DNA of 57,493 bases, filler included, from Dugesia japonica (GCA_001938525.1; 4 parts of 4 records of this genome joined end to end with filler, not necessarily neighbours in it); one strand, 5' to 3'. Shown: positions 5,591-30,233, counted from the whole stretch's first letter. Notes: generated by a model not told the origin, from the letters alone. Numbers and translations: made by a program.

Positions 5591-7199
5591 AATTATTTAT
5601 AAATACTTCAATTAATTATACATAAGCTATCCTTGTAAATATTGATTTCTTATATATTAACAGTGGATAATTCAACACATAAAATCGATTCAATCTATGC
5701 TATTTACTCTTCCCAGAATTAATTTATCTATTCTAATTTGTAATTTGATTGTATTACTAACTATATCTGTTTAAACAATTGCTCAAATAACTGATTCAAT
5801 TGATCATTGTTGTCAAGGTGATACAGGTTATCAAAATTTGTATTCAAATGCTGATATTTAACATTGATCATATGATCGAAAACTCATTACTAAATGTATA
5901 ATATTGCACAGTAAATATTTATTTTATTTAATAATTGCATAATCAAAAAAAATTCATTAATTGTCTATGAGATTAATTGGTAACTAAACAATAAATATTT
6001 ATTATCACTAATAATCATTAAAAATAATATTATTAATAATAAATAATAATTTTATTATAATCATATAATATTCAGTATAATTATTTAAACCTTTGTTTGA
6101 ATAATACAAATTGAATAATCTCATATTTATCATTTTGTCAAATGATGACGAATGTAGATTCGTCAAAATTTATTANNNNNNNNNNNNNNNNNNNNNNNNN
6201 NNNNNNNNNNNNNNNNNNNNNNNNNNNNNNNNNTTTTACATATGTAATAAATAATAACATAATAAATTTCTTTAAAATTTTTAATGTCTATCAGTTTAAA
6301 TAAATATTTTTTTTATTTAAAATGTTTTCTCTATGAATTCTCAATTTTTCTCTAAAGATATCCAAAAACAAAATTTTAATTATTCTAATTGTAAAAAATT
6401 TTAAATATTAATTTGTCTCAATGTTCATTTTTCAGTAGCAACAAAAGATCAAAACCATATCCTTATCAATTGTATGTTATTTAATTGTTTCAATTTTTTC
6501 CTTATCTTATTTGTCTTATCTATTTAATTAAACATTGTTAAGATTTCTATCTTTGTATCAACATTATATCATAATGATACAAATAATTATGCATTAGTTT
6601 GATTTACATTTTCGCCTAAAAGAAAATCAGTAAATTCTAAAGTTGTACCGGATTTATTTAGACTAAATTTTAGAGTAATAAAATTAATCGGATAAAAAAA
6701 ATAATTTCTAGAAATATATTATTCGTAAAGATTTTCAATCGACATCAAATTTATAAACAAAAATTAATATTATAGATTGCTTTTTGTTACTTATTTGTTA
6801 GTATAAAAGTTTTAGAATAATTGATAACTTTCAGTGTGTAATATCTTAGACGTTATTAATTTTACCATTAAACATGAAATATCGGTGTTTTCATTATTGA
6901 TACAGTTAAAAGAAACCTAATAATTTTATGGATTTACCTATTAATTATTAAATGCATAGTGGGGGGTGGCAATCTGACAGTTTTCCTGTCTTTGTATATA
7001 ACATATCTAGAAAAACTCTTGTACGCTTTATATAGGAATTTAATTTCATAAATGAGAAAATATCAAATATGAAAATAAATATTATAAAATAAAATACTAT
7101 AATCTAGTAATTTAGTCATAAAAATAATGTAATCAATTTACAGAAAATAACAGAAGATTTTAATTTAATTATTTTTAGACAATTGAAAGTGTAAGTTAA

Positions 7200-7720
7200 A
7201 GAAAGTAATCAAATAACAGAGAACGTATTGTGGAAATTGTCAATTATCTAAAACTATGGACCTCAATAGTTGAGGCAATCATTAAGGCATTTGGCAAACG
7301 TTACAGATTTGAAAAGATATCATTTGCTATTAAACTTTGAAGGTGTTCTGCATTTTAATAATTCATTAGTAATTGTAATAGCGAGAAATTTGTCACATTT
7401 ATTTCAGAGCTTGATGAAATTTTGATAAACCACCATAAAATATTAACAGTAAACATTTTTATGGCAAATACTCGATCTCTTTCGTTTACGATATCACGAG
7501 TAAATATCGAAAAACTAAAATATCAGGTAGCCTTTCTATCACCTTACTTATTTATGTTGAAAACAGTGGAATTTTTCTATAGTAAAATAAAAATAATTGT
7601 TAAAAAATAATTCAGTAAAAAGTATACAGAAATTAATCATGTTCCGATTTGACACGAACAATTAAAGAGATATTAACAAAGGAATGATGTTGCTTAATAA
7701 GAATATATTTTGTGTTTGTT
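7200..7720 (+). mobile_element. Tc1/IS630-like transposase remnant
   Basis: IFMANTR...VAFLSPYLFMLKTVEFFYSKIK is a decayed DNA.FH / FLPPYSP.LNPIE..FSK.K. Confidence 0.6.
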
Positions 7721-8120
7721 ATGAATACGCATGGTTTTGATTAATAGACGATTATCGCGGAACCTTCGTATTAAAATTTTAGTGATTAATTAATCTGTTT
7801 CAAGAAGTATTCTAATTTTATTTATATAAATGATATAATTTAAAATCTGCTTAAGAGTTATTAACATCCAATGATTGTTTATAGGACAAAAAAATTGAGA
7901 AATTCTTCAAATTATCAAATATAAAAATTTGATAATAGATATACAATATTTGCTCATATTAATTTGTAAAAAATGATTACGTATTAGCCAAGTAATTCCA
8001 AACTAGTAAAAACGGTTCAGTGATTAAATAAAGATAGACAATAAATTAAAATAATACCAAATATTTATTGAAAATACTAGTTTTAAGTAATAACAATACG
8101 TAGAAATTTTCAGTTCTCTT

Positions 8121-8300
8121 AGTAGATAGGAGCGCACAGTGCCACTTCTCCTCGCCGACAATGTGGTGCCAGGGTTTTACTTTTTGATTGGTCGACACAA
8201 ATACTATTCCTAAACACGCATTCATATTACAATATTAATGATTTTTAATATTGTAATATGAATGCAACATAAAAAAAACACAAATCTGGGAATTTTTAAA
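8121..8300 (+). mobile_element. Polinton-like left terminus with 21-bp perfect hairpin
   Basis: Starts AGTAGATAGGAGCGCACAGTGCC; perfect stem 8218-8238 / 8245-8265. Confidence 0.5.
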
Positions 8301-8580
8301 ACTACTCAAACCACTAAAATATTACAATAATCCGTGGTAACTATGTAAATTAATAAATGATAACTAATAATAAATTAATTTATAAAAATTTATATTCAAA
8401 TTACTATAATTGTAATATTTAGAATTGTGATAATATGAAATTAAACAATCAATAAATATAGTAATTGCTTAATTTCATATAACCATAATTCTTATTATAG
8501 TAATTATAGTAATATTAAATTAAAATTCATTTGTTAATTTCAAATTCATTTAGTAATACAAATTAAACAATCAATATATT

Positions 8581-8990
8581 TATCTTCCCGTCATCTCTGC
8601 GCCAGAGTTCAAGAGCATAGTCGAAATAGTGGTAATAGTAATATTATTGAGCATCGAAGAAAATGTACAAAATCAATATGTTGTTCAGATTTTAAAATTT
8701 TGTGCAGTGGATTTAATAATTATTGGGAGAGAGTGATGTGCGAAGGTTTGTTGATACGGGCATTAAATCCTAAAATTAATATTCAGTTGACAGATTCAAC
8801 ATTGCTCTTAAAATTATTTTATTGAAATTTTTTATTGAGATTGTACAATTGAAATTATATAATCATTTAAACTTTGTAAAACGTTTGTTTTAATATTGTG
8901 TAATTGCCTGACGATGACGGTTATTCCGTCGAAATTGATAGCAAATAAATATTTTAAAAAATGGTTGTCAATTATTTATTTAAAAATATT
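8581..8990 (+). mobile_element. Penelope-like element 3' end (GIY-YIG C-terminal half plus pLTR)
   Basis: SSRHLCARVQEH..SNIIEHRRKC..FKILC..WERVMCEGLLIRALNPKINIQ..LKLFY*, followed by a hammerhead core. Confidence 0.85.
8904..8944 (+). ncRNA. Minimal type I hammerhead ribozyme (Penelope-associated)
   Basis: TTGC-CTGACGA-T-GACGG ttatt CCGTC-GAA-ATtgAT-A-GCAA; stems I, II and III all pair. Confidence 0.8.
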
Positions 8991-9526
8991 ACTCGAGTTT
9001 TTTTATTTTTCGAGTTTTTAAATATATTTATCTATTGTAAAATTTTATATTTACTTTAAATATTTACTTTGAAGTAAATTTAAAGGAACTTTCTTATCAG
9101 TTCCAAGAAAAAATTATTTTGTTTTCAAATAAATTGTTAATAAATAATCAATAATAACTTATTAATAATAATGATGAAATTAAATGAAAATAAATAATTA
9201 ATAATAATCAAAATGATAATGAACAATCAATGAAAACAATAAATATTTTATTTTAAAACTTATTCGACATCTTCAACTATTATCATTGAATTATATGAGA
9301 AATTCTCGAACAATATCTTTCACAAACAGCATAAATAATTTTACTAATCAAAATGAATATATTCAAATCCCATTTATTTGGAATAAAAGAATTTATATTC
9401 TAAATCTGATGTTAAAAGCTTTACAAACCGTCTAATCCTCAATTCATTAAAACATTTCGAAAAACATTGATTTTTGGCATCAAGATTTAAATACCTATCC
9501 AGTCCCATTTTGTACAAATATGATAG

Positions 9527-10280
9527 TATGACACGCTTCTCAACAATATTATACAAATTAAAAGATTTTATTCTTACAACTTATAAAGCTAAACCCAATA
9601 AAAAAGTATTGATACTTAGTTCAATGCATTCATCCGTTGAAATTGAAAAAAATGACACCCGTATATCAGAGACAATTAGATTTTAGAATAGCACAAAATT
9701 CGGTGTAGATGTAACCGATCAAATGGCGAGAAAATATAGTGTAAAATCTACATGTCAAAGATGGCCTTTACAGGCATTTTTCAATATCTTAGATTTAGCC
9801 GGGATAAATGCTTGGATTTTATATATAGAAACAACGGGTGAGGAAATATCGAGGCAAGAGTTTTTATTTCAATTGACAGAAGAACTTGGGACCGAATATC
9901 AGAAGGAGAAACAGATAAGCAAAGAATGCTCATCAAAAACAATAATAAATACAAATACTGCTTCTTCTGAATGGAGATCTTGTCAAATTAGATATTGTAA
10001 AGTCAATAAAACAAACAAAATTTGCATAAAATGTAAAAAATACGCATGTGGAAAATGTGCAATACAAAATGCTGTAATTTGTAAAAAATGTGATGAAAAT
10101 GCATAAAAGTAAATAAAACTTATAACATCGAAAAGCGGGGAACGACTTTTTATTGTATCATCAGAAAAATATTTTGTTTACTATCTACTTTACTAGGATA
10201 CATATGTTTTTTTGAAGCGGTCATTTGACCACTCATAGTAGAATTAGGTATACATGAAATGTGGGTAGGTTTAGTGTTAA
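9527..10280 (+). mobile_element. 5'-truncated piggyBac (transposase C-terminus, 3' TIR, TTAA)
   Basis: KKVLILSSMH, TKFGVDVTDQMARKYS..RWPL..FFNILDLAGINAWILY, C-terminal Cys-rich domain; ends ...GGTTTAGTG-TTAA. Confidence 0.92.
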
Positions 10281-10299
10281 AGAATAATATTTGAAAAAT

Positions 10300-10886
10300 T
10301 CAAATTTGTCAGAATACTTTATCTACTATTTTATTTCAGTCAGAAAAACTTCATCCAAATTACATCAAAACATTCGATCAAATCGACCCCACCGATTAAA
10401 AATGTGACTGATTTCGCCTACAAATCACCAGTGATAAGCCAAATTCGACCAGTTCGAGGAAATATTCGACTGAAACTGAGAAAAACATTGAAAAAATTCA
10501 GGTTGTTCACCCGGATTCTCATAAAAAATCCTTTAACAAACTAAAAAGCTTGAAAAATATTACCGCTTAAAAAGCCTAAATTTTCGAAAATAATTTAGCC
10601 AATTTTTCAAAATAAGATTAAAAGTTATGTAATCACACATAAATTTTTATCTCCAACTAAAAACATAGCAAGGATTTGGACACAGTTTATCCTATTACGT
10701 AAAATCTCGACGATGAAATTAATCCAATTAAATAACTTGAGTGTAAAATATTTTTCCCAACTAAAAACATAAGGAAATTATTGACAAAATTACCTAATAT
10801 GATCTCATTTTTAATTTTCCAACTAAATACACCGGAATTAAGTTTCACTACATCACTAATCCTCGGGGTTCTAATATCTATCTACT
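10300..10886 (-). mobile_element. Polinton-like terminal repeat (family shared with 15314-15950 and 38638-39246)
   Basis: Ends TATCTATCTACT (rc AGTAGATAGATA); cctattacgtaaaatctcgacgatgaaattaatc matches the reverse complement of ~15512-15549 and ~38682-38712. Confidence 0.55.
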
Positions 10887-11160
10887 AACCTTTAGCCTCA
10901 ATTTTTATAGTGAATCATCATTTTTCGTTTAACGTTTATGTCCTTTTTACTTTTTAATTTTCTATCTAAATCTGAAAATCCAATTTTTTACCAGTTTTTT
11001 AGTGGGGAGAACTTATGTAAAGAAAACTTGTTTTCGATGAAACAATAGGTAATTTTTGGTGCTAATTCCAATGGTATCAATATGTTTTAGTATAGAATTA
11101 TTAATTCATTATAATATATACTATTATAATTTTAGTTCCCATTTGATACATATTTTATCT

Positions 11161-11350
11161 CGAGAACAAATTATTATACAGCCGATTAAATGAAAAATTC
11201 ACTGCCAAACGATCATAATGAACTAACAGGTATGGCAAAGTAATATTGTCCTATGACAACACTCGGCCTCATGTCGCAAAACACTTTGCTGAGGCAATAA
11301 AACAGCTGAAATGTGATGTATTATCCCACCCGCCATACTCTCCAAATATT
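11161..11350 (+). mobile_element. Mariner catalytic-domain fragment
   Basis: KVILSYDNTRPHVAK...LKCDVLSHPPYSPNI. Confidence 0.85.
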
Positions 11351-11703
11351 TATAATACATCACCTTTGGTTAATTTCTTGCTCCAATTTTCATTCAATCC
11401 ATAGATATTTTTCATTTTTATATTACATAATTCCGATTGTGTTAAACCATGTTCCTCATCCGCATTTCTGTGTCAGTGTATTTTGTTTAATTTAAAATTA
11501 AAAATATGCGATTTCAATAATTTACACACAAATATAGTTTTCCACTAACACATGGACCCACAATTTTATAGACGGCATGGTTTTTCAATTCTATTTTTAT
11601 TTTATATAAATTACTTTTATGCTTATAGTGTTTAAATGAATCAATTAAAGTAATTTCAACAAAACCCTAGTATATATACATCAATAATTACTATTAATTA
11701 TTA

Positions 11704-12146
11704 ATGATTGTTAATATTGAAAGGGAAAAGTATCACAAGAAGTCACCAAACTATTAAATTTTCTTCAGGAAAACCATCAAAAGTGTTGATAAAAGCAGTA
11801 AATATACTATTATATTCTTTAAATCTAAAAATTGTAGAATAATAGGATGTAAAGAACCTTAAGAAACACAAGATTTACAGCATGATATGAAAAGCATTCC
11901 ATTACAACCATTAACGGTTCTAGTCAACTTGGGGTTAGTAATTAATTTATATTAATTAGACAAAGTAACCAAGTGTATTTATAAACCAGAATTGTTTCCC
12001 ACTTTACTCTTTTGAAATATGATCTTACATGTGTTAATGTATTTTCATCAGGAAAAGTTGTCATTCTTGGACTTAAGAATTTACAATATCAAAATTATGT
12101 TGATGACATAACATCAGATTTATGTAATTTAATTAATAAGATGTGA
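11704..12146 (+). pseudogene. Decayed, intronless, divergent TATA-binding-protein-like gene
   Basis: Manual translation across stops and frameshifts: ..KYTIIFFKSKNCRIIGCKEP*..LQPLTVLVNLGLVINLY*LDKVTKCIYKPELFPTL/LKYDLTCVNVFSSGKVVILGLKNL..*. This matches both TBP repeats (IF.SGK....G.K; YEPELFPGL; IF.SGKVVLTGAK). Confidence 0.75.
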
Positions 12147-12224
12147 ATGATGTCATATCTAATTTGATGTATCAGTTGCTTGAATTCGTATATAAACTAT
12201 TTCAAATTGTAATTAATTTATAAA

Positions 12225-12620
12225 ATGAAAGACTACACTGTTAACTATGACAGTGATGACACTAATGATATGGAGACAGTTGTTTCTAAAGAAGACGATA
12301 CTGAAGCAAAAGATCATGAAGATGACATAGAAATGGATGAAATGAAAAATGAAACATGGTCCAAGGATAAAATAGAACATTTAAATGATACAACAGATAA
12401 AATGAATATAGAAAGATGGTCATAATGGATTAAGGAAGACAAGAAAGAAAAAAGCTTGATTTTTATTAAATAATTGGTTTTTATTGTTTTGTCGAAATGG
12501 CTATTAGAATTCTGGAGAATGAATTCACAAATTTAAATGAAGATTCTGAGTACTGGGCTCTAGAATTTTATTAGATAAAACTTTATAAGTATACAAATTT
12601 TATACATTATTAAATTATTA
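12225..12620 (+). pseudogene. Small acidic ORF remnant directly after the TBP-like gene
   Basis: ATG in AAAATG context 78 nt after the TBP-like stop; D/E-rich 66 aa, continuing as disrupted coding-like sequence. Confidence 0.35.
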
Positions 12621-12796
12621 AATATTATTAAATAAATTCTTTAGAAAACAAGTTTACAATCAAATCAATGTCTATGCACCAACCCGATTGTCAATACAAA
12701 CGAATATGGAGAATAATTAATAAGATTATTCATTTATTTTACTATTGCCATTATTGCGATAATAATTGTTGGACGTAACCATTGATCGTTTTTCAG

Positions 12797-12980
12797 AATT
12801 CATTTAAAATAAAAGCTTCGAAAAAAATTTGTTTTTTTGGTTTTTTCAGATTAATTCTATACTTCGACTTTGTCTTCGTCAGGAATTGGTGACGAATTAT
12901 TGACGAAGACAAAGTCGAAATATAGACTTAATCTCAAAAAAACAAATTTTGATCGAAAGTTTTATTTTAAATGAATTATT
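12797..12980. repeat. Foldback element with two opposed hammerhead cores
   Basis: ~90-bp inverted arms; minus core at 12853-12887 (GAAA>GAAG) and plus core at 12895-12929 (CTGA>TTGA). Confidence 0.75.
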
Positions 12981-13033
12981 CATTTATAAAATTAATCTTA
13001 GTTATAGCTTTATTTAATTTTTTTTATTATGTT

Positions 13034-13270
13034 TTAAACATTTTTCTCTTTCTCAAATGCCACACGTAAACGAGTCTGAAAATCTTCAACTTTATTCAAT
13101 ATATTTACATATTGTTCCAACAAATCTACATCTAACAAACAAGATAATAATCTCTCCTGTTGTTTTGCCTGGGTGAGGTTTTGAGCTTCAAAATAAAATT
13201 GACCTCGCTTGATGAATTTCTCAATATCATCTTCATTACAGAGCACATTCTGCAATAACCTCTCTGTAAA
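13034..13270 (-). mobile_element. Gypsy gag N-terminal remnant
   Basis: DDIEKFIKRGQFYFEAQNL...LLEQY...FQTRLRVAF, a gag-like helical pattern. Confidence 0.45.
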
Positions 13271-13322
13271 ATAAACGTCAATGAAAACACAAAATTTAAT
13301 TAAATTTCAAAGTTATAATAAA

Positions 13323-14046
13323 AAATATAGAACCGGTTCAAATTTGATCTTACCGAATAAATTATCATCCTATTTTTATATCTACATCAAAACCCATGTC
13401 AATCTGCAAAAGAAAATATAAATTACAAACAAATAAATAATAATACAAATAACATAAATAACAAAGATAATAAGTGTTTTTTGTAAAGTGTACTGGCTGT
13501 TACAAAAGCAAAAATCATGCGGATGAACAACATAGATTTCAAACAGCACAACACCAGAAATAAATGTCTGCATTAAAGTATAGCAAGGCAAATATGCCAA
13601 TGAAGTTAAAAATATACCCAAATTTGAATGACAAAATTTTGGACTTTCGATCAACGTCATATCATAGAACTCAACATCACTTGAAGATTTTGATGTAATG
13701 AAGCATCTAAATCTAGACATCATACATAAATATAAAGTGGTTAAAGAACAAAGAATTTATCTGTGGCTTTTGAAAAATGGTAAAAATTATTATTAGACAG
13801 TGGCCATGAATAAAAATTGATTGACAAATTGTGGTATTAAACTCAATTGGGTACAAATAAGATTTAAATTGTGTCTAAATTGCCTTAATGGATTCAGATT
13901 ACAAGAAACGTTTGATATATGATAGAATACAAACTAGCAATACTCAGTATACGATGACGACAGATACAAAATTGGAATTTTAGGATTATTGCAAAACAAT
14001 TATTCCTCTACTTTTCATAAATGCCGATTTTGAATCAGTTTTACCT
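13323..14046 (+). mobile_element. Polinton/Maverick protein-primed DNA polymerase B, N-terminal remnant
   Basis: GSNLILP..INNKDNKCFL*SVLA..MPMKL/NIPKFE*QNFGLSINVI..IYLWLL..CLNCLNGF..LEF*DYCKTIIPLLFINADFESVLP (Exo I YADFES motif). Confidence 0.78.
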
Positions 14047-14507
14047 AGCCATTAAATAACATAGGATGGAAAATGCATCATTTTGTAGTACTTTGTTTGA
14101 AATGGTAAGCTCCATGTCAGCTTAAGATCTTTGACATCCTTTATTGAAGTAACAAAAATTTGTTAAATTCAAATTATTAAATGATTATATTACTTGATGT
14201 TTATCAATTTCCAGGGTTTAATAGTTTGAAATTTCAGAAAAAACCGACTAAAGAATTTTTTCAAGATTATCTTAAATTTATTTTGTTTGAATTGCTAAAG
14301 CCATTTTATGCAATGAATACATTCTTTTACGAATATCTTGTATATATTTACAAACATTTACATTTTTCAAGTAAGTATTTTCTTTAATTGTTTTTTATTG
14401 TCATTTGAAAATTTTCTAAACACAGAATTCCTTTTAGATTATTGATTAAAGATAAATGTCTCTAGTTTCACTCACAGAGTATCTATATTTGTATTCACTG
14501 TTAATAT

Positions 14508-15305
14508 TGTGATGTGTTTTAATAATATTAATTAATTTGTGTAGATTTTAAATGAACTTTAGTAAACTCAAGTTCCCTTAATTAATTACAATAACATGGC
14601 GTCACGATCATTGCTGGAAGAACTTATCGACTGGCTAAATGTAAAAAATATGTTTTCGAAGAAATTTACAATTGGAGAAAACATTTCAAATCATATTACC
14701 GAATTCGAAACATTTGCCGAAGAACAAAAAATCGGGGATCCAACAAAACGATCAGAGAAGTTATTAAAAAGTTTAGAAGAAGAAGCATTTTTTAACTCCA
14801 ATCAATCCCAGAGTTTAAATCTAATAAAATAAATTATGAATGATCGAAGACAAAGTTATTTGAATTATATCAAATCAAGTCAACCAAGTTAACTCCAATA
14901 ATTAATATTTTATCCTTGAAGCAGTAAGATATGACTCTTAGACAGTATCTAACTGCTATCAGAGTTTCAGGATTCACAAAATTTCAGATTTTGATGAATT
15001 TGATAGAGAAAAGACTCTCTTATCAATATTTTTTAAAGGAGTTAATAATCGTTTGGCAGCCAGAGCCACGGAAATTATGAAACCAAACACTCTGGAAGAA
15101 GCTCTCAATTTTATGAAAAAGAAGATAAAACTCGACATAATGATAAATTGCGAATTATTAGCAATGATTTTAATACAAAAAAATGGCAAGAAATGGAAAT
15201 ATTAGGACGAAAAATTATCGAGCTTGAAAACCGTATAAAGTATTTAGAAAGAAACCATGAAACAGATTCTCAAAAGTATGCAGTTCAAAAGTTCAAAGAA
15301 AAATT
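14508..15305 (+). mobile_element. Gypsy 5' remnant: short TG..CA LTR, PBS, gag
   Basis: TGT(14508)...ACA(14596) immediately followed by TGGCGTCACGA; decayed gag (FTIGENISNHITEFE..., LSIFLKGVNN..PNTLEEAL). Confidence 0.65.
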
Positions 15306-15313
15306 AAAATGTT

Positions 15314-15950
15314 AGTTGGGGAAAGTGGTGGTCTGGCGCACACACATTCAGTAACCATCCCCCGCCGTGACGTAACGAAACGAAACATAATCCTAATGTA
15401 TTTTGTCGACGATTTGAAATTGTACACCTATTAAGTAATATTATGTAACTGCGCCAGTATTTTTTATGTGTATTTACTCGAGAAAATTTTTTTGCACACA
15501 AANTATGTCATAGATTAATTTCGTCGCCGGGAAAATTTACGTAATAGGATTAAGTGGTTTGATTTTTAAATTTATTTTATAAATGGTTTGATTTTCTCCT
15601 ATGTTTTTAGTTGATGAAGTTTTTCAGGTTTTTTAAGTATTAGAATTTTTTAGGTTTTTTAAGCAGTAGGATTTTTTCAAGCTTTTTTAATGGGAAAATA
15701 TTTTTTATGAAATTTTTTACTGAAATTCGGATGAACTTATCATGTTGTTTAAATAATATGAGAAATTAAAAATTTTTAAATAGAATTTTAATGGGAATCC
15801 AGACATCCAAAATTTCAAAATATTTTTTTCGAATTTTACAACATATAGATATTTTTACAGCTTTCGACTAAGAATTTTACGGCGATCATTTTTGGTTTTC
15901 CCAGTTTTTTACACAGGATTTTTTCGAAAATATTTTTTCTCCTCAAATGT
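15314..15950 (+). mobile_element. Polinton-like left terminal repeat
   Basis: AGTTGGGGAAAG..GGCGCACAC start; aatcctaatgt motif shared with 179-189; subterminal region homologous to 10300-10886 and 38638ff; pPolB 3' end follows. Confidence 0.5.
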
Positions 15951-16487: not shown

Positions 16488-16751
16488 TTACATTGTCTGG
16501 ACTGTTTCTGATTCATCTTCACGATAAGGTGGTAATTTACAATGTCCGTATGGAAGACTTATATTTTTATCTGTCCATACTCTTTTGTCATCTGTGTTAG
16601 TGAGTGCAATTTTAGAATTATTTGAACTTTATAGTGTGTGGTCCTTACTAAAGATTCTGAATTGATTAACTGAGACGTTTTGATTGTTAGTATAACAATC
16701 AAGATACGACTGATGACTTATGTCAGTACCTTTTAATGTTACCCCCTTAGC
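16488..16751 (-). mobile_element. Polinton pPolB C-terminus
   Basis: AKGVTLKGTDISHQSYLDC..NQFRIFSKDHTL*SSNNSKIALTNTDDKRVWTDKNISLPYGH; canonical K(A)KGV, DDKR and LPYGH motifs; truncated by a gap. Confidence 0.85.
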
Positions 16752-16927: not shown

Positions 16928-17073
16928 TTTCATTAAAATAAAGAAAAAGCTTCGATCAAAATAAATGTATTTGTAAAAAAGTTCAAATTTTCGACAATGG
17001 TCTTCGAAAATTTGAACTTTTTCTACAAAATGCATTTTATTTCTATCGAAACTTTTTCTTTATTTTAATGAAA
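16928..17073. repeat. Foldback element related to the hammerhead pLTR family
   Basis: ~68-bp inverted arms containing aagcttcgatcaaa; the loop reads rc CGAAGACcattGTCGAAA (stem II remnant); adjacent to (ATT)n. Confidence 0.65.
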
Positions 17074-18462: not shown

Positions 18463-18798
18463 ATTTCAAATCGAACTTCAAAAAATTTCCTCAATCAAAA
18501 ACCATTCAAAGAGGACAATCTCTGATTCTCACATGTGTTCCTCCTGAAAGTAAACCAAAATCTAACGTAAACATTGTTTATCAAGTTAAAGTTAAAACTA
18601 ATTGATTCATTTTCTAAAATTAGGTTCAATGGATGAAAGATAAAAGGAAAATATTTGAGAACAGTAGAATTAAAATCATTGATGAGCATCAACTATTGGT
18701 TAAGGATACTGTATTGTCAGATGCTGGAAATTATAGTTGTACAGCAAGTAGTCTAGAAGAAATACGTTATTCTCCCATAGCTGTTATAAAAATTCAAG
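18463..18798 (+). CDS. unc5: UNC5 second Ig-domain exons (18463-18566, 18624-18798)
   Basis: FKSNFKKFPQSKTIQRGQSLILTCVPPESKPKSN / VQWMKDK...LSDAGNYSCTASSLEEIRYSPIAVIKIQ, separated by a 57-nt GT-AG intron. Confidence 0.9.
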
Positions 18799-21700
18799 GT
18801 CAGTCTGAAAATTTAATTTCGAAATCTTTAATAAAACTATTAGAAGTAGTTACTGCAAATCCATCTACACAATGGTCAGCTTGGTCTGTTTGTGATAGTA
18901 ATTGTAAAAAATCAAGAACTAGATCTTGTAACAATAAAGATAATTGCAATGAAATAGTTAAAGAAGTGGAATCTTGCACAAAAACTGAATGTGAAGGTAA
19001 TAATTGACAATGTAAAATTGGAGTTTTTTCTAGAGTTCAAATATCAAACTTTTTGTTTTCTATTTTTAAATTGCATAACCAATAAGCGAGGATTTAAAAT
19101 CAGAATAATTCGAGCTCGGTTTATTAAGTATTTTATGGGTGGAATAATTTGAACACTCGTTATTAATACAAATTACAGAATATTTAAAATAATTTTGATA
19201 CTAATATTTTGAAAGATTGTTTTTGATCAATAGTTAACAATTGAAAGAAAAAATAAAACGAAATATTTACATCGGTATTACAAGTAAAAATCATAATAAA
19301 ATCAAGTATAAAAACAAAGAAAAAGAAAAAAATCTGAAGCTTNNNNNNNNNNNNNNNNNNNNNNNNNNNNNNNNNNNNNNNNNNNNNNNNNNNNNNNNNN
19401 NNNNNNNNNNNNNNNNNNNNNNNNNNNNNNNNNNNNNNNNNNNNNNNNNATTTCATATCAATTAATTTAAACAAAATTTAATTATTTCATAAAATTAATA
19501 GCTTCGATCAAAATGTTGTTTATTTTTAATATTTTTCATGATATTTTAGTAGTTAATATTTCAAAATTTTGACTTTTGTCTTCAGAATTTAACGTTTTGA
19601 TTGATTTAATCAATATTAGAAAATTTTACAAAATTGTGCATTTTATTAAATTTTGTTTTACTTTTAAATTAAATTTTAATATATTTTAATTAAATTTATT
19701 ATAATTACTATGAACTACATTAATTTTATGTATATCATGTCTGATCAATATTTCTTCATGTTTCTTTCTGTGAAGTGAAGAATTGTAGCCTTTTCCTAAT
19801 ATTTTCTGTTATATGATTTTTTTCTGGTGAAATCTTATGTTTGTATTAAAAGTATTTGAATCATTTCCATTTCTTTCTGTTGGAGATGTTCTTTAATTCT
19901 TGTTCGGATGGTTTTGCAAAATATAATAAAAAAATCGGAATTCAAACATAATCCAAGAGTTATATTCAAAATACAAGCACATTTTGATAGTCAATTACAG
20001 AAACCAAGATAAAACCTATATCATATGAAATGTATTTGTGATGATATAAATATATGCAATAAGAAAATATCACTTATAAAATAACAAGGATACATATATA
20101 GGAGAAACAAATATTTTCAATGTTTCTTATTTCTTATTTCATTAATTTTATTGTCATATAGTAATTGACTTTAATTGTTTTGACATTTTATGCTCAATTT
20201 TTCACAAGAATAAATATATCTATCAAAAAATAAAGATAAAATTATAATATTAAGTATGTAAAAAGTGTTTCCATTTATTAAGTTGTAATAAAAACAATAA
20301 CGATGATTTTAAATGCCAATCAAATCGTTTTATTATTTAATTGTTTGAATTATGACCATGTGAATTTTATAAATATAAATGTGTTAATATTTGAATATTA
20401 TTTTTTAAATAATTATTCGACATTCAATGATTAAGCTCAAATCAACTTTACTTTATATTGAAAATATTTAGATAATATTCAAACAATATTGAAATATTAA
20501 TCATCAACTTATACATTTTAAAATAATTACAAATATTAAAACAAACATCTTACATTACAGATATAAATAAAAAAAAACACTTTAACAAAAATCTTTATAT
20601 ATTTTCTAAATTTCCTTTATTAACTGAAATATTTTCTCAAGGAAATCTTCAACATTATTGTCATGTTACATCAATTCATTAAAATAATTTTTTTCGAATT
20701 CTTATCATATTACAACGGGCTTTTTGTTGATATCAACATGCTAGATATGATCTTTTGTTGAATGGTTAATAAGGTTAAGTTTATATTTAACTGTCAGGTG
20801 TAAAATATAAACCATAATAATTTTTTTAATGATTTATAATAATAAAAATGTTATTTTTAATAAAAACCCTGAAATAAATAAACAACGAAAACTAATAATC
20901 AATTACCAATTTCAATGATATTTTTTATTTTTACATTAAAACAAAAAACGATTCTAAAGTTACACATGATAAGAAAGTGACCCTAAAGCTACACCCCTAG
21001 ATTCATATTTTTAATATGATTAAGATATTTTCTTAACAATTTTTTTTGTCAATTTTATTTGCATAGAAAAATAAATAAATATAAATATAAATTAAAGAAA
21101 ATGGTAAATTATAAAATCTATTAATATGATTATTTCGTTTGTATAAATTAGAAATAATAATAAACAATTAATTTCAATGGCTCTGATTACCTCATCAAAA
21201 AATAATTAAAGTCAATTCTGTATAAATGTTTCTGGTAGTTTAATATCTAATTTATCAGATATAAAGAGTGAGTATAATTAGTAGTCATATTAATTTATAG
21301 GCTAAGTGTCAATCATTACAGGCTCTTCTCACAACAATGAATAACTATTTCTTTCTTTTTAGATAATAGAGCAGTGGCGCCTTTTGTGAAGAATCCAAAT
21401 AAGAATGGAGGTGAGCATTTTTCGCTTTATTTTTCTGAGCTATATTTAGCAATTTTATACGAATCAATTTGCAGCAGTGACGGATTTTAAAATTTCTATT
21501 TTCATTTTAAACAAATATAGCTATTTTCAAATTTCCTCTCAAAAATTTCTCCTTTATCCATGACAAGCATGATCAAATTATTCAAGTTATTTTATGCTAT
21601 AATTCTATAGAATTTCAACTATATTATAAATGATAATAATAAATGTAATTGTAAGATATTTTAGTGTTTGAACATATTTTTATTCGACTTTATAAAGACA

Positions 21701-24341
21701 AAATAAAATAGTTTTAAAGTTTATTCAATTTTGAAAATATATTTATATAAATATATAATATTTATAATAAAAATAACAGTAATAATAATATTAATAATCC
21801 TAATATTTTTTATATATATAGTCGAAATTCTATTGGACGAGGGTAAAACGAATATCCAATGAAAGATAAAAAGTGACGAATNNNNNNNNNNNNNNNNNNN
21901 NNNNNNNNNNNNNNNNNNNNNNNNNNNNNNNNNNNNNNNNNTTGATATAAAAAGTATATTATTTAAAACAATATGCTTAAGGTTGATGTTTTGATTTCTA
22001 ACACTATAAACAATTTTTTGTATCTTTATTTTTTAAAATATAAGCTTCAATCAAAATTTGTTTTTTTGAGATTAATTCTATATTTCGACTTAGTCTTCGT
22101 CAGGAATTGACTTTTTTTATTTTTATTTTATTTGGGCTATTCATGTAATATTATTTATATGTGCGTGTTTACTTACATACAATTTTGAATTGAATATGAA
22201 ATAAATTAAATCATTTATCCAACAGAATTATTTTACAAAACAAAATTTATCAACAAAAACATAATGTTTCATTTTCAAGNNNNNNNNNNNNNNNNNNNNN
22301 NNNNTTATTATTATTAATAATAATAATTTTAATAATAATATTATTAATAATTATTATTATAAACGTTTTGTTGCAATAAAAATTATATTACAAATAAATG
22401 ATTTATATTTTCCCGTGGTAAAAATTATAATTTAAAAATAAATAATGACAAAACTACACTGAATCTGATTTTGTTAGTTTAAACATTCAACATGTAAATA
22501 TTTTTGCAATGGATTTTCCACTTTCAAAAAATATTATTAATCTAGGTTCCTTTCATTTGTCTACGATTTCATATAGGGTCATTCCTTCACCAAATCGCAA
22601 AGAACGTGATCCTTATATTTGCTCATCCTCCAGTCTAAAGTTTCCAAATTTAAACTTCGCAAACCATCTCCTTGCTTTTCTTTCATCCAAAGCCGTAATT
22701 GTTGCCCGTGGTTTCTGCTGCTGTTTTATTCCTTTTAAATTCGTAGAGCATGCAATTGCACAAATGTCACACTGGTTGTTTGAAGGTTGCCATTTGAATG
22801 GATTTAGATTTTTAATTTAAATTTCGTAGAAAGAATTTTAGTCATCTAATATTCAGTATAATTGCTTAAATCTTTGTTTGAATAATACAGACTGAATAAT
22901 TCCATATTTTTCATTTTGTCTGATGATCACGGCTGATCTGTCAAAATTTATTAAATCGCGTTATTTATATTTTCATAAAAATGTTTTTTAAATAAATTAA
23001 TAACTTAGTACTCAGATAATTTAATTTTGATTTATTAAACAACAACTTATAAAACATTACTTTTCGGAAGACCTACTAAATTTAGTTTAATGTAAAATAG
23101 TTTATTTTTTGAAAAGAAAAAGTAATATTGTATCCAGTATATGTACAATTATTATGACTGGCAAAACAATTAATAGTGTAATTATTAAATAATTATTTCC
23201 ATTTTTATCTAGTATCAACCAGCAGTTTACAAGATGCCAGAGACATTGCAATGTATGTTGGACTATTTGTGGCTGTAACAATTCTAGTAATGGTCATTAC
23301 TGTCATTTTTTGTCTCATTCGTCGGAAAGCATTCTTACCAATACGAAGTCCGATGCGATATCCACTTAATATTAACGGTAAGTGTTTTGTAATGTTAACG
23401 TTTAAAGTTTACAAATTTGATTGGTGACGCCTATAAAATAATTTATGTATCATTGAATTGTATTATAAAATTTTCTAGGAAATGGCGTCACGTTTGATGT
23501 GAAAAACAGTCTAATTAAAAGTATATTTATGTATTGAAATAAGTGAAACTAATCCGTTTATTTTAAGGTTCAAATCCAATTTCAGTCAAAAACCAAAATA
23601 CTATGGACACAACGTTGAATTCATTAATGCAACAAAGATCTTATCTTTCTCAAAGTCCACCTAATCTGCCTCCACCAACTTGTTTGTCAGAAATTAGCAG
23701 TACAAATGCATATTCAACTGGTATTGACTTTTCATACAATAGCACGGGGTCTGGAAAGTTTTCTCAGCCTTTAATTTCGAATTCATCGTCAGCATCTACA
23801 ACAAATAAATCAAAAGCTACTTCATTGTAAGTTATTCCACTATAAAATCATTTCAAACAATATTATTTTCGAGTCCGATTTCCTAATTTAAATAATTTCT
23901 AGACAATATAACATTGATGTGAACACGACTGAATAACAGGAGAAAAATAATATTATTAAAGGCATACATTTCCTTTAACTTGTCAGTAATACCACAGATT
24001 CTAATTCGATAATCATAATTAATGTACCCATTACAATGAAACTAAATCATATTCACTTTGTTACTACATGACAACTGGAAAATTTTAAAAAGAATCTGAA
24101 CAGTTAAAATATTGTGTACTCTGAGTTTGGTTGTTTCATTTTCAATATTATTTATGAATTTTAAATTCTACCGCTTCGTAAATTAACATTAATTATCGAA
24201 TATTAAAAGAAAATGATTAAATACAATATTTTGTTTTAAACAGTAATCATTAATTTTATCGATTATTTTCAATTTAATAATAATAATAAACNNNNNNNNN
24301 NNNNNNNNNNNNNNNNNNNNNNNNNNNNNNNNNNNNNNNNN

Positions 24342-24400
<59 letters not shown>

Positions 24401-27400
24401 GTTTTACAATTGCAAATATTGCGAGAATAATTGTTGGACATAACCATTGATCGTTTTTCATAATTCATTTAAAATAAAAACTTCGATCAAAATTTGTTTA
24501 TTTTTGAGATTAATTCAATATTTCGTTTTTGTCTTCGTCAATTAAAGTCAATTCCTGACGAAAACAAAGTCAAAATATCGAATTAATTTCAAAAAACCAA
24601 AAAAAAATTTTTTGATCGAAGCTTTTATTTTAAATGAATAATAACTATTATTTATTATATTATATTTATTAATATATTTATATTTAATATATTCATTATT
24701 ATTTTATTATAAATAGGTTGAGAAATCGTTCCTCAAACAATCTTTCTAGACATTTAATAAATTATTTGTAATTTGAATTTTTTTATCTACTGATTTTAAT
24801 TATACTTAGTATTGTTACTATGTAGTTAAATATAATAATTTCTCATTAAATATCCACTATACATTTCAGCTATTTGATATATAAAAATATGGTATTTAAG
24901 AATATCATTGGTGAGAAATCCGATCCCCATTATGTGCTCATTCAAACTGAATAAAGTTATGATCAATCAACAGATAAAAAGTTTTTATAAGAATATTACG
25001 AAATAGTGGAGTGTAAATTATCATGAAATATAAAATTTTAATTAAATATTTCTTAAAATAATTAGTATTAATCAATTATTTATTAATATTAATTTAATAC
25101 AATATTTAGATCTAACACTGATCATAAACCTGATCCATTGACTGTTTCGGGATCACCATTAAATTCAAGACCACCATCTGCTTTGTATCATGAATTATCT
25201 TTAGATCATGAATCATTATGTAACCCACCTCCTTTTGTATCAGAAAATATTGACATAAATACTTTAGCCTGGGGTATAATTTCCTCCTCAGGAGGAAGAC
25301 TATGCCTTCCTCAATCAGGTAATTCAATAAATCTCTTTCATTTATTTAAATTAAACCATACCTTTAGGCATTACACTCACAATTGCACCAGGTAGTTTCA
25401 TTAATTCTTCTTCCAGTGAAATGTATCTGGCTGTGTCGAGAAACGATCCAAATCCACCAATATTGTCTGGTATGAATATTTTAATGGATTAAAGAAAATT
25501 ATTTTTCACTTGTCTAATTTTTGTTAACAATTATTTAAGTCAAAATGACTAGAACAATACAAAATTATAAATTCGATTGTCTTTCCTTCTAGATAACCTT
25601 TAAGTATATGTGTTTTAATTTTAATAAAAAAATAATTTTTTTGATAAAATCAACAAATGTTCAACATGTCGAATAAATTTCAATCAAATTCAATGTTTGA
25701 TTTTAATTTAATGAAATTAATGATTTATTAATTTTAAATTATGCAGTGGAATTCCATGTTTCAATATTATTTTTTAAAGAAATTATTAACTCTGAAATAA
25801 AAATTCAAAAATATTATAAATTCAATTCGTAATTACAAATTTCCACATTAATTTTATTTTTTTAAAAATTTTAATTTTCCACAATATTTAAACAAAAAAA
25901 TAAGACATTAAATTAAAATGACAAAATATACAAAAATCACACATTTCATGACATAAATTTATAAATAAATTAAAGTATTCAATTTTAAATTAATTTTTTA
26001 ATCATTTTATTAATATTCTATTATAATATATTTTGAAAACCTTTTAATTATTCTAATGATTATAAAATTAATAAATTTCATTAATTACATTAAATTAATG
26101 CAAATTAAATTTATTAAAAAAACCTAGTAATATATAAATAATTTGAAAACAAATATATTGCTTATTGTTTGTATTTATATAATANTATAAATTGTATATG
26201 CATTTTGTTAGACAATGAAACTTTGCTCACTCCAATTGTTTTATTTGGACCAAAATGTGTTTCAATATTAAAACCATGTGTGATTTCGGTACCACATTCT
26301 GCAGATTTGAGACAAGGAAATTGGGTTATTCGTTTACTTTCATGTGTTCTTCCAGATTCAAATGAAGACTCAAAAGAACCAATCTGCCAACCTATTTGGA
26401 AGGTAAATCGAATGGACTGTTAATCATTATTTTTGCTTTAATTTAGAATATAGCTACTATTGGATGTGAAACGGATCAAACGCCAATTTATACACATTTA
26501 GATCCATTTGCTGCATTTATAATGCTGGATAAACCACAAAAAATATGCCTGGTCGGGCAATCGTATCCTGGTGGAAAAGCTACAAAACGATTACGATTGG
26601 CCGCCTTCGGCAGACCATTATCAACCAACTCCTACTTGCCAAATTACAATATTAGAATCTATGTTTTTTCAGATACTAAAGAAGCATTTGAAAGTGTGTC
26701 ATCAATTGAAATGAAATTGGGCAGCACGCTTTTGGATATTACTTATCAGATTATTTTCAGTGATAGTATGGGTAATTTGTTCTTCTGTATTGANNNNNNN
26801 NNNNNNNNNNNNNNNNNNNNNNNNNNNNNNNNNNNNNNNNNNNNNNNNNNNNNNNNNNNNNNNNNNNNNNNNNNNNNNNNNNNNNTAATATCAATAAAAT
26901 AAAAAAATGATAATTACATTTTTAAAGATCATGTTAAAGGTCTTTTAATTTTATTTCTACTATAATGAATTTTATCAATTATAATTAGCGGACTCAGTAA
27001 AAAATTTATTACTCTCTTTTGATTATATGTGTAAAGAGTAGATTTTATTAACTTTTTTATTAAATTCTTTTTTTGTCGTTTAAATAGTTGTTCAAACGTT
27101 AAGCAGATTTTATATTTTTGGTATTGAATTTTTTAATAGGTATTGTAATTATTAAAAATTTTTGATTAAATTTTCTATTAAATTGTATTATAATTGTTGT
27201 AAACTTTAATAGTCTTTGATTGTATTTGTAGTTAGACAAGTTTGAGACAATCATCGTTGATTTAAAAGACTAGATCAGCTTGNNNNNNNNNNNNNNNTGG
27301 TAGGCCGCGCGCAGACTAATGGTGTATCGCAAAAAATGTTAACATTTACAAAAATAAAAAAGCAAATTTTAATATTATCAATAAAATAAAAGGATTGTTC

Positions 27401-28263
27401 GTTCTAAATACAATTTTATATAATTTATTTACATCAAACTTTAAAAAAACATTACATTCTACATTTTTATTCTTATTGTCTTCTATACCGGTGGGTCGCA
27501 AAATTTATTGGTTTAAATAGTGAGTCTCGTAAAACTCTGGGAACCGCAGAACTAGATCATTTCATTTAAAATTCATTATATGACAACGACAACAAATTAT
27601 AAATTTGTTTTTTAAACAAATTAAACAAACCAAATATTTCGCATTTCAAAATGAGTTTTTTATAATTTTATTTTAATAATAATTCAATTTGTTTAATTTT
27701 TAAATTATTTCAAAAATTTTAAATAGGTTTTGCAAAAATTTCAGATTATTTCTTAATATATTTTCATATTATATTATTTTTAAATTATTTATTTATTTTC
27801 GAATTCGTTGTATTTATTAAATCATCAGATTTTATTTAATTATTTACGTTAAAAACTTCGTTTGAAATGTCAAAATATTTAGTTTGTTTCAATCCATTCT
27901 CACTGTATTGATTTTTACATAATATTTGTGTAACAAATAAATTATATTCCATGGACAGAAAAAGTTTTTTTTATCAATAAAATTTGTTTGATGAATTCTG
28001 AGATTCTTGATTTGTAAATAAAAAATTTCCTAAAATTACTGTATTGTTCTTTTTTAAGGGTAGGAAGTGGTGTGATCGTTCAAAATTGAAGCATTTGAAA
28101 AAAACGTAAAAAACTTAAAAATTCTTTCTCTGTAAAACAAAATTAGTTTTAACTTAATAAATTGCAAAAAAACATGCCAATAAATATTATTATTNNNNNN
28201 NNNNNNNNNNNNNNNNNNNNNNNNNNNNNNNNNNNNNNNNNNNNNNNNNNNNNNNNNNNNNNN

Positions 28264-28295
<32 letters not shown>

Positions 28296-28577
28296 TTTTG
28301 TTTAGGAAATTCCATTTCAAGACATTTGGAGTGGAAGTCAATCAGAAACTTTACATTGTGCCTTCACCTTTGATAATATTGATCCATCACAACAGTCATT
28401 AACATGTCGAATCACCGCATATCAGAGTGGATTCTATAGTCACAAACAAGTTATTACTATCAAACAGGATAAATCAGATCGTAGCAGTTCAAAACGAGAT
28501 CTTATTCAACACGAGAAAGTTTTACTGTATTCAGATAGCAATAATACTTATCTGGATCCATTAATGACAGTTTTTAG
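18463..28577 (+). CDS. unc5: UNC5-family netrin receptor, partial multi-exon gene (Ig2-TSP1-TM-ZU5-UPA)
   Basis: GT-AG bounded, phase-consistent exons: 18463-18566, 18624-18798, 18844-18996, (21363-21410), 23213-23377, 23479-23520, 23568-23826, 25110-25318, 25368-25469, 26212-26402, 26447-~26793 (runs into N gap), 28306-28577. Motifs: LTCVPPESKP/VQWMKD/DAGNYSCTA (Ig), WSAWSVCDSNCKKSRTRSC (TSP1), DIAMYVGLF (TM), SSGGRLCLPQSGITLTIAPG and TLLTPIVLFGP (ZU5), KRLRLAAF and EIPFQDIWSG..LHCAFTF (UPA). Confidence 0.93.
18844..18996 (+). CDS. unc5: UNC5 thrombospondin type-1 exon
   Basis: TQWSAWSVCDSNCKKSRTRSCNNKDNCNEIVKEVESCTKTECE; AG at 18842-43, GT at 18997. Confidence 0.9.
19740..19920 (-). mobile_element. 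Penelope GIY-YIG fragment
   Basis: CKTIRTRIKEHLQQKE...ILGKGYNSSLHRKKHEEILI; similar to 30500-30660. Confidence 0.65.
21363..21410 (+). CDS. unc5: Candidate 48-nt symmetric cassette exon of UNC5
   Basis: Strong pyrimidine tract plus AG, donor GAG|GTGAG, phase 1-1, stop-free (DNRAVAPFVKNPNKNG), locally GC-richer. Confidence 0.6.
22074..22108 (-). ncRNA. Minimal hammerhead ribozyme, intact core, antisense in UNC5 intron
   Basis: rc AATTC-CTGACGA-A-GAC taa GTC-GAA-ATAT-A-GAATT; 5-bp stem I, 3-bp stem II, palindromic stem III. Confidence 0.75.
22500..22810 (-). mobile_element. Mariner N-terminal HTH fragment
   Basis: HLCNCMLYEFKRNKTAAE...ARRWFAKFKFGNFRLEDE. Confidence 0.8.
23213..23826 (+). CDS. 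unc5: UNC5 transmembrane and juxtamembrane exons (23213-23377, 23479-23520, 23568-23826)
   Basis: DIAMYVGLFVAVTILVMVITVIFCLIRRK TM helix with basic stop-transfer, then a Ser/Pro-rich linker; all phases are compatible. Confidence 0.88.
24401..24640. repeat. Foldback element with two opposed degenerate hammerhead cores, next to (TAA)n
   Basis: Same family as 12760-12980; arms attcatttaaaataaaa.cttcgatcaaaa / ttttgatcgaagcttttattttaaatgaat. Confidence 0.75.
25110..26793 (+). CDS. unc5: UNC5 ZU5 and UPA exons (25110-25318, 25368-25469, 26212-26402, 26447-gap)
   Basis: WGIISSSGGRLCLPQSGITLTIAPG; ETLLTPIVLFGP..ILKPCVISVPHSA; LVGQS..ATKRLRLAAF..YNIRIYVFSDT. Confidence 0.92.
27276..27549. mobile_element. 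hAT (Charlie-like) MITE
   Basis: CAG start and GGGAACCGCAG end, flanked by near-identical 8-bp TSDs GACTAGAT / AACTAGAT. Confidence 0.65.
28306..28577 (+). CDS. unc5: UNC5 UPA C-terminal exon (absent from ORF track)
   Basis: EIPFQDIWSGSQSETLHCAFTFDNIDPSQQSLTCRITAYQ...MTVF(R); AG at 28304-05, GT at 28578. Confidence 0.9.
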
Positions 28578-30233
28578 GTTGGAATTCATTATTAATTTAC
28601 TAATAGAATAAATCTGATAATCAATATCCATTGATAATGTATTATATCGATGCGTAAAAAATTTTTGATTAATATGAAATTAAATCAAAGATTTATCCAA
28701 GATTTTGAAAATTCTATGAAATTTAATATTTATATTTAACCTATATACAATTCTTTAATTTTGATATTGCATTAATGTAATTTACGATTGGTTTTTTAGC
28801 CAGTTTGATTAGGTTATAATTGAAATTTGCTACAGTTTTCTTACCTTACTTTTAATCTTCTTACTGCCTTAGAGTCGGTTTATCTTTTATTTCACTTTAT
28901 TTCTTTAGATTACTAGATATTGACTTTACTTATTTTTTTCATGTGATTACTTTTTTATTGTTGAATTATTCTATTAAGAATCTCATTTAAGCAAATGGTT
29001 ATTATACCATTCTAATTCTAATTTAACAAAACTTGTGAAATAAAACAAAGATTTGATGTGTTAATTTTGGAAATTATTTATTAAAAGTATTACAGTTCAT
29101 TAAAATAACAATAATAATGGAAAAAAATAATAATTATTGTTATTGCATCATTTTTTTAATTGTATCATTACAATTATATCAATAAATCTGAGAATTGAAT
29201 TAAATATATTAAAGAATACAAAATATAGAACAAAACATATGGAAGACAAGATATAGAATAAAAGATGTAGAATACCATACATGGCAATGTTTCCTAAATT
29301 TTTTTTACAAATTCCTCCGACAGATCAGTATGATTAATTTGTTCCCCTTTTTTAAAAATTTTAAAACCTAGTTATACATATATATATATATTTTCTTACT
29401 GATTGAAACACAATTAATTCCCATTAATTCCCATTCAGCTAATATTAGAAATTATAAATTAATTTGTTTATTGTTGATGTGGATAATTTTTTTAAAAAAT
29501 TTATTGATTTTTTTGATTGCGAGACGGTTATAAAGCGAATAATGAATTCATTTAATATTTTATCAGGCTAGAATCGAAAATTATCCGTATAGTATCAGCT
29601 TTTATCAAAGTCAAATGTAACAACAAATAAATACAAATAAGGTTCAGATTTAATAACAATATGAAAAATCGATACAAAAATAATAATCAAATCGAAGTAT
29701 ACAAAGAAATTTGATTCAACAGGATTGATAATCAATTGATTAATAAATTATGTATTGAAATTTCAGTTTTCGGTGCCGACAATATATTTTTTGACACGTT
29801 GAATAATCAGTTAAAAATAATAATAGTAATAATAATAATTATAAGATAGTTTTTTAAAAAACAGATTAAAATTTTTTTTTTTGAAAACGGAATTTATTAA
29901 AATCAAAAGTATTTAAAATTGNATCAAGAAAATAATTTATAAAATAAATTTATACAATTAAAGGATTTTTAAAATATAAAATTAAATGAATAAAATAAAT
30001 CTATTTTAGTGTATTTTTTAAAATCAAAATATAATTTAAATATAAAATATAAAATTAAGTATTTAGTATTTTCCGTTTTTAAATATGAATTTTTAAATTT
30101 GTTTGTTTTAACAAATAATGATTTCATAGTTTTNNNNNNNNNNNNNNNNNNNNNNNNNNNNNNNNNNNNNNNNNNNNTTAATTAATTAANNNNNNNNNNN
30201 NNNNNNNNNNNNNNNNNNNNNNNNNNNNNNNNN

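Follow-up and report, generated by a model that had tools for sequence, protein, structure and literature searches.

A decayed Maverick-like element in Dugesia japonica comes from a lineage that encodes a short TATA-binding protein homologue

A 57,493-nt stretch of Dugesia japonica DNA (GCA_001938525.1, four records joined with filler; hereafter the window) holds a decayed piece of a Maverick/Polinton-like element, and the lineage of that element encodes a TATA-binding protein (TBP) homologue of about 150 residues, which we call mini-TBP. The window gene, at 11704-12146 (+), is almost certainly a dead mini-TBP gene. We lean slightly towards the view that a widespread lineage of small integrating Mavericks runs a two-stage programme through this one 150-residue protein of altered specificity, which would read a private TATAAACA box, work with host TFIIB and RNA polymerase II (Pol II), and have shed the surface used by TBP regulators. 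How Mavericks switch on their capsid genes bears on whether and when they become viruses, and a dedicated mini-TBP with a matching word makes a one-protein, one-word model for assay.

The window gene comprises about 147 codons with three in-frame stops (11860, 11953 and 12013) and several frame changes, within about 11720-11800 plus one near 12013-12024; this copy itself is broken. The initial annotation had described a disrupted TBP open reading frame (ORF) without introns or N-terminal extension in a gap-free stretch. All three of its quoted peptides were found in the translation, neither an intron-sized gap nor an extension was found in 11704-12146, and 6234-15502 is free of N. The Pfam TBP model matched the two halves of the gene at E 0.004 and 0.0028 (17.4 and 17.9 bits), both below the cut-off of 22.9. 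The family-profile search that had been proposed as a check was positive: a profile built from 110 relatives scored the two main window frames at 70.6 and 40.7 bits (E 3e-23), and the top frame score among 300 shuffles was 6.6 bits. A word-indexed protein search with the broken window frame gave no match.

Searching 1.84 billion proteins with phmmer, using the longest window frame with stops written as X, returned 27 matches (best E 6.9e-17). By inspection, 25 are of the short type and two belong to a 163-residue class; cellular-type TBPs are absent. A 48-row tree placed the window stretch, with 45% of columns filled, beside 12 database proteins in a 13-row clade (support 100/94). Its end branch (0.55 versus 0.04-0.26 for other clade members) is long, as decay would lead us to expect. 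An old processed copy of a host TBP or TBP-related factor, lying by chance next to Polinton debris, would also be intronless and broken, and the region is indeed a heap of unrelated transposon fragments. That account is already largely refuted, and we give it almost no credence: the phmmer matches lack cellular-type TBPs, the closest proteins are 55-64% identical to the window copy versus 21-26% between the family and cellular TBP, and the head-to-head link with an ATPase gene (described below) recurs in another copy. Nor does mini-TBP show the features of cellular TBP/TRF paralogues, namely a full N-lobe, four intercalating Phe and closest similarity to host TBP. The initial annotation's view that the gene is too divergent and short for a recent TBP retrocopy agrees with these searches.

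A profile from 25 of the 27 phmmer matches found 496 proteins at E <=1e-5 among 2032 candidates; PF00352 was present in all 120 of these that were listed, and the remainder may include cellular TBPs. The family alignment that we used holds 110 of the proteins found, 143-165 residues long. A near relative, P0038, scores 57.9 bits against PF00352 (cut-off 22.9). For the intact relative P0002, the structural model (predicted local distance difference test, pLDDT, 96.5) matched TBPs in Foldseek at E 4e-9, with template-modelling (TM) scores of 0.65-0.77 and 18-26% identity. Against yeast TBP it gave Z 13.1 and a root-mean-square deviation of 2.5 over 145 of 148 residues, the first non-TBP row standing at Z 6.9. 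P0002 is thus predicted to adopt the two-lobe TBP saddle, and the TBP fold that had been read from the window sequence is borne out on this intact relative. In the Atlas, P0002 was nearest to TBP clusters (0.98), with recognition under its threshold. As judged from their codons, the intact mini-TBPs are under purifying selection: dN/dS was 0.11-0.45, with a median of 0.25, across 58 non-independent pairs from 25 intact ORFs. A second TBP class of 163-167 residues (P0026, P0148-P0175) has a longer N-lobe and the same non-canonical Arg/Met/Ser/Asn positions, on a 100/98 branch, and is possibly an intermediate between cellular TBP and mini-TBP.

The genes beside the relatives identify the lineage. 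One metagenome scan yielded 59 loci; two (L058 and L059; E 7e-4 and 1e-3) were excluded before all counts, leaving 57. A core Maverick gene occurs in 25 of the 57 (13 of the 18 that are at least 3 kb long), another 25 have accessory families only, which also occur in core-bearing loci, and the seven with neither are all shorter than 1.6 kb. We found a packaging ATPase in 14 loci, C5 protease in 13, rve integrase in 10 and double-jelly-roll capsid in nine. Pfam, run on 123 of the 243 locus ORFs, reported Pox_A32 nine times, rve and Peptidase_C5 five times each and PLA2 once, and no TFIIB or RNA polymerase family. PLA2 is present in two loci and an integrase chromodomain in two. The ORF of about 410 residues is predicted to be a double-jelly-roll capsid protein, the model of a 408-residue example (pLDDT 67) matching such capsids at E 8.9e-16. 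Two loci, L003 and L017, each carry TBP, ATPase, integrase, capsid and polymerase on a single contig, and their long ORFs show all six family-B motifs (ExoI-III and PolA-C) with an endonuclease VII/HNH insert. Relatives lie among integrase, ATPase, protease, capsid and family-B polymerase genes, in line with the proposal of a Polinton-like endogenous virus lineage with its own TBP. Scans of viral_contigs with the broken frame, A1, A2, capsid and ATPase gave no confirmed relative.

Several other features of these loci were seen. Accessory genes of TBP-bearing elements include a ubiquitin-conjugating enzyme, leucine-rich-repeat proteins (one with a signal-peptide-like start) and a RING finger (L017:225-719 (-); L023, L033, L036, L042; L045:1710-2168). 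The minor-capsid-like gene of L017 stands in two tandem copies (5616-7684); the labels minor-capsid-like and exonuclease-like reflect position and motifs, as distinct from matches. Between the C8 and C1 ORFs that precede mini-TBP lies a short AT-rich GT...AG stretch resembling a spliceosomal intron (L012 at about 1440-1490; also L016, L020, L021, L022 and L034), which would fit nuclear transcription by Pol II.

Relatives carry two kinds of upstream word. We collapsed ORFs at 85% identity and looked within 120 nt upstream. The word ATAAAC[AG] precedes all 11 ATPase, seven major-capsid, eight C4 and six C12 ORFs, 6/7 minor-capsid-like, 4/5 integrase and 3/6 protease ORFs (expected 0.1-0.8 each, and 0.2-0.6 for the ATPase, capsid, integrase and protease families). 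Ahead of mini-TBP it was found in 2/37 cases (expected 1.3), and TATAAAC[AG] in 0/37; for other families the counts were 1/8 (C7), 0/4 (C8), 2/4 (C9), 0/12 (C1) and 1/4 (C11). The second kind, a TATA box with an initiator, precedes 10/37 mini-TBP genes (expected 0.5), 4/8 C7 and 4/4 C8 ORFs. Across 13 loci (71.7 kb), TATAAACA occurs 51 times in sense and three times in antisense, versus 14:10 for GTAAACA and 140:140 for AATAAA. In the same loci, 58 of the 78 ATAAAC[AG] sites with a downstream ORF lie no more than 120 nt from its start, versus 19% of random positions. The distance from word to ATPase start is 31-36 nt in 10 of 11 relatives.

Two other readings of the word were disfavoured. A polyadenylation signal fits poorly with the even strand count of AATAAA and with the T that stands before the word in 45 of 58 cases. 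A protein-level motif fits poorly with its placement, 37 of 91 occurrences lying between genes and the remainder in two reading frames (28 and 26).

The window retains traces of both kinds of word. One-mismatch copies of TATAAACA lie at 11620-11627 (-), 32 nt before the start of an ATPase remnant (shuffle p 0.028), and at 12191-12198 (+), 33 nt before a small acidic ORF (shuffle p 0.018); both stand at the modal distance, and each is weak alone. No copy with up to one mismatch was found ahead of the window TBP gene. There, a canonical TATA-like box at 11671-11678 (+) may be an early promoter, weak as evidence because the surrounding DNA is AT-rich.

Residue conservation suggests that mini-TBP keeps the TFIIB-binding glutamates and has remodelled the lobe responsible for the 3' half of the box. 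The C-lobe can be aligned without difficulty to the TBPs of archaea and Encephalitozoon, and it keeps EPELFP and both Phe. Human E284 and E286 bind TFIIB (PMC7221094); the TFIIB-binding glutamates of the family are E97 in 109 of 110 sequences and E99 in all 110, and in the window copy Lys replaces the first of the pair. F41, F101 and F117 are each present in 110/110. Non-canonical residues are fixed to the same degree: R47, M49 and N115 in 110/110, S72 and N6 in 109/110. Within the C-lobe, the Asn of Q-N-I-V has become Ser in 109/110, and Asn replaces, in 110/110, the Leu that stands two residues ahead of the second Phe. By our own count, this Leu is presumably yeast L205, and we take the substituted positions in general, from alignments and known TBP structures, to face the DNA. 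L205 affects TBP specificity, and L205V is one of the three changes in the altered-specificity mutant TBPm3 (PMC1636458).

The N-lobe keeps the F116-type Phe and, in the alignment, has the invariant Arg47 and Met49 in place of the Val and Thr of TBP. The TBP C-lobe reads the 5' half of the box and the N-lobe the 3' half (PMC1636458); TATAAACA departs from the canonical box in that 3' half. Between strands 45-51 and 65-78 of the P0002 model there is no helix of at least four residues, and the long N-lobe helix H2 is absent. The H2 surface binds TFIIA, Mot1, TAF1 and Brf1 (PMC7221094).

These features suggest a late-gene switch by mini-TBP at TATAAACA, which on sequence grounds we consider probable, if modestly so. 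Host TFIID and Pol II would transcribe mini-TBP early from an ordinary TATA plus initiator promoter. Mini-TBP would then bind TATAAACA, its conserved C-lobe contacting the 5' TATA half and its remodelled N-lobe the 3' AACA half. Through the kept E-P-E loop, mini-TBP would bring host TFIIB, and hence Pol II, to the genes for ATPase, integrase, capsid and protease. Because the long N-lobe helix is lost, mini-TBP would escape control by TFIIA, Mot1 and TAF1. If so, mini-TBP would prefer TATAAACA over TATAAAAG and bind TFIIB but not TFIIA or Mot1, and transcripts would start about 25-30 nt past TATAAACA. Such a protein would amount to a minimal and naturally orthogonal factor for promoter recognition, and to a molecular switch that separates the integrated state from the virion state.

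A number of observations weigh against this switch, or against the lineage assignment on which it builds. The fourth intercalating Phe is apparently replaced, by K, P, S, R or T in 107/110 sequences (mapped by eye), and loss of one of the four could weaken DNA binding. The TATA plus initiator pattern is missing from 27 of the 37 mini-TBP genes, and ATAAAC[AG] also precedes genes without a structural role, 5/5 leucine-rich-repeat and 8/11 exonuclease-like ORFs (expected 0.1-0.8 each). The word was chosen by eye, after seeing the data and on the same loci, and its counts cover TBP-bearing loci only. Since TATAAACA is one base off the canonical box, host TBP might read it too. The genomic context of the family comes from clades more distant than the window's nearest 12 relatives. 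The L003 and L017 polymerases matched neither Pfam DNA_pol_B_2 nor a PDB entry, and their assignment to the protein-primed class, made from context and motifs, is tentative. Searches of the window with locus ORFs and profiles found no integrase or capsid remnant. Around the fragment we found no terminal inverted repeats (TIRs) with AGT-type ends and a 6-bp target duplication; the ends are apparently lost, and the related contigs are partial.

Some of this would suit a decoy or host shut-off factor, a mini-TBP that sequesters TFIIB or blocks host TATA boxes and leaves TATAAACA to host TBP or some other reader. A Forkhead-type factor is one candidate for that reader. The nearly invariant TFIIB-binding glutamates, combined with the seeming loss of a DNA-intercalating Phe, are what a decoy would show, and the word is a single base from the canonical box. 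However, 109-110 of the 110 sequences share the same new residues at the positions inferred to face DNA, a pattern that agrees with selection for a specific contact to DNA, and the Forkhead-like GTAAACA showed no strand bias. We regard a decoy as unlikely.

Mini-TBP might instead drive late genes solely in complex with further proteins of the element, which would provide specificity or bring in Pol II, as in the herpesvirus viral pre-initiation complex. Small genes of no Pfam family (123 of 243 ORFs scanned) recur beside mini-TBP: C2 in 21 of the 57 loci, C1 in 15, C7 in nine and C9 in eight; the Atlas gave nothing for C1. The Epstein-Barr virus protein BcRF1, taken alone, binds TATA and TATT equally in vitro (PMC4893493). 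However, no neighbour family is common to all sub-lineages, and mini-TBP could reach host TFIIB directly through the E-P-E loop that it has kept. We consider an obligate complex of this kind rather improbable.

A switch that mini-TBP operates at TATAAACA would be functionally analogous to, without membership of, the beta- and gammaherpesvirus BcRF1/ORF24/UL87 system, in which host Pol II is directed to late genes by a viral protein that mimics TBP and by a variant box (PMC4893493). The herpesvirus proteins are large, about 10% identical to TBP, and act on TATT in a six-protein complex (PMC4893493), whereas mini-TBP has about 150 residues, is 21-26% identical to its cellular counterpart, retains the TFIIB loop and would meet its variant base in the 3' half of the box. 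The mini-TBP model matched BcRF1- and UL87-type models weakly (E 6e-3 and 9e-3). On that view, a very small genome would have arrived independently at the late-promoter strategy of herpesviruses, and mini-TBP would serve as a natural experiment on which TBP surfaces can be dispensed with.

Like cellular and archaeal TBP (PF00352), mini-TBP has the two-lobe saddle, the C-lobe EPELFP loop and three of the four intercalating Phe. Unlike them, it is about 30 residues shorter, its N-lobe helices are reduced or absent in the model, and it has fixed changes at inferred DNA-facing positions. Giant viruses also encode TBP homologues (PMC7221094; BFVD matches), but most of these have diverged at the TFIIB-binding glutamates and the viruses bring their own TFIIB (PMC7221094), whereas mini-TBP keeps the glutamates. 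Polintons, Mavericks and adintoviruses (Starrett 2021, PMC8502044; Jeong 2023, PMC10748475) share with the relatives of the window element an rve integrase, A32-type ATPase, C5 protease, double-jelly-roll capsid, PLA2 and a family-B polymerase with an endonuclease VII/HNH insert; the conserved mini-TBP and the strand-specific TATAAACA word set the present lineage apart.

The initial annotation had supposed the lineage to be undescribed. That was too strong, since the Fig. 5 legend of Starrett 2021 (PMC8502044) defines a 'TBP' label for viruses with an adintovirus-like PolB, which may be the same family. What stands is that we found no characterisation of mini-TBP in print, in mostly open-access literature where, among the papers listed, Starrett 2021 in its two versions was the one seen to link TBP to adintovirus-like elements. 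The available part of its supplement text has no TBP match, the main texts of Jeong 2023 (PMC10748475) and Krupovic 2024 (PMC11161782) contain neither 'TBP' nor 'TATA', and the available part of a TBP survey (PMC7221094) does not mention Polintons.

Many related copies exist in D. japonica, as the multicopy check envisaged. One position in the TBP gene is covered by 57-60 contigs in two DNA runs of the species. Each run also has a 333-nt contig that covers 11510-11835 with 49 differing letters and shows the ATPase-TBP link in another copy; diverged contigs at 12077-12316 and 12106-12358 join the TBP end to the acidic ORF in other copies. No piece among the contigs listed ties the polymerase to this block in another copy. 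The contigs are short and cannot tell whether any copy is whole. Two RNA runs under the same species label, placed at 80% likeness, were not used as evidence because strandedness was not established. Over the TBP bins, diverged reads of run X11 gave depth 4-14 in one mate direction versus 0.5-2 in the opposite one, with 4 of 2666 placed reads at >=99%; run X14 had almost none. What the window adds to the family is a host that has numerous related copies and in which ATPase and TBP genes stand head to head.

The ATPase remnant, overlooked in the earlier reading, is the broken N-terminal part of an A32/FtsK-type packaging ATPase at 11305-11597 (-). Separated from the TBP start by about 110 nt, it points away from that gene, a layout also seen in L039 and L047. 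By blastx it matched ATPases of TBP-bearing loci at 43-51% identity (E down to 1.5e-12), and an ATPase profile gave an independent E-value (iE) of 1.4e-13; Pfam by itself found no match. The remainder of the gene is gone, beside a mariner-like fragment. On the other side, the acidic ORF (12225-12425 (+), 66 codons) begins 78 nt past the TBP stop, exactly as first described; it had no Pfam match and no counterpart among the 243 locus ORFs.

The broken N-terminal part of a Polinton-type family-B polymerase (pPolB), correctly placed on the same strand by the initial annotation, lies at 13439-14055 (+) and stops at the ExoI motif (profile iE 2e-9). It matches the polymerases of two TBP-bearing loci, L003 and L017 (E 4e-9 and 3e-8). 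A C-terminal pPolB remnant that had been overlooked, at 16539-16751 (-) (iE 6.7e-18), runs into an assembly gap and may be a separate insertion. A separate question is whether the ATPase-TBP-acidic ORF block and the pPolB remnants derive from different Maverick insertions. Two high-copy repeats lie between pPolB and the block, no diverged contig among those listed crosses 12600-13400, the second pPolB piece has the other orientation, and in L003 and L017 pPolB is 6.5-7.3 kb from TBP and opposite to it. However, ATPase (-) and pPolB (+) still place the polymerase on the other strand from the structural module, an arrangement shared with L003 and L017, and gene order varies within the lineage. 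Separate origins are a real possibility, short of the one we would favour.

The two repeats, at 12705-13346, have copies elsewhere in the window and very high contig depth, and are likely later insertions. One, at 12705-13025, is short, very high in copy number and has internal inverted arms like a miniature inverted-repeat transposable element, with copies near 17040, 22030, 24400 and 32070. The AGTAG-type termini reported earlier found no support: AGTAGT and ACTACT are absent from 10.5-17.2 kb, and the 5-mer AGTAG occurs 57 times across the window on both strands. We also rejected as TIRs a flanking inverted pair (about 10490-10970 and 15240-15750, 71% identity), which looks like a dispersed repeat because a third copy lies at about 38400-39100. 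This repeat has internal 26-nt units, and two of its copies flank the Maverick remnants in inverted orientation.

The rest of the window is AT-rich, with assembly gaps. Transposase fragments are piggyBac-like (DDE_Tnp_1_7, 9687-10106 (+)), mariner-like (DDE_3, 11180-11350 (+)) and DDE_1 (56079-56447 (+)). Three short ORFs at 14566-15315 (+) look by eye like a broken retrotransposon gag, with no convincing Pfam match. Host gene exons with Pfam matches to Ig and UPA domains span 18624-28611 (+), from what we take to be an unc-5-like gene.
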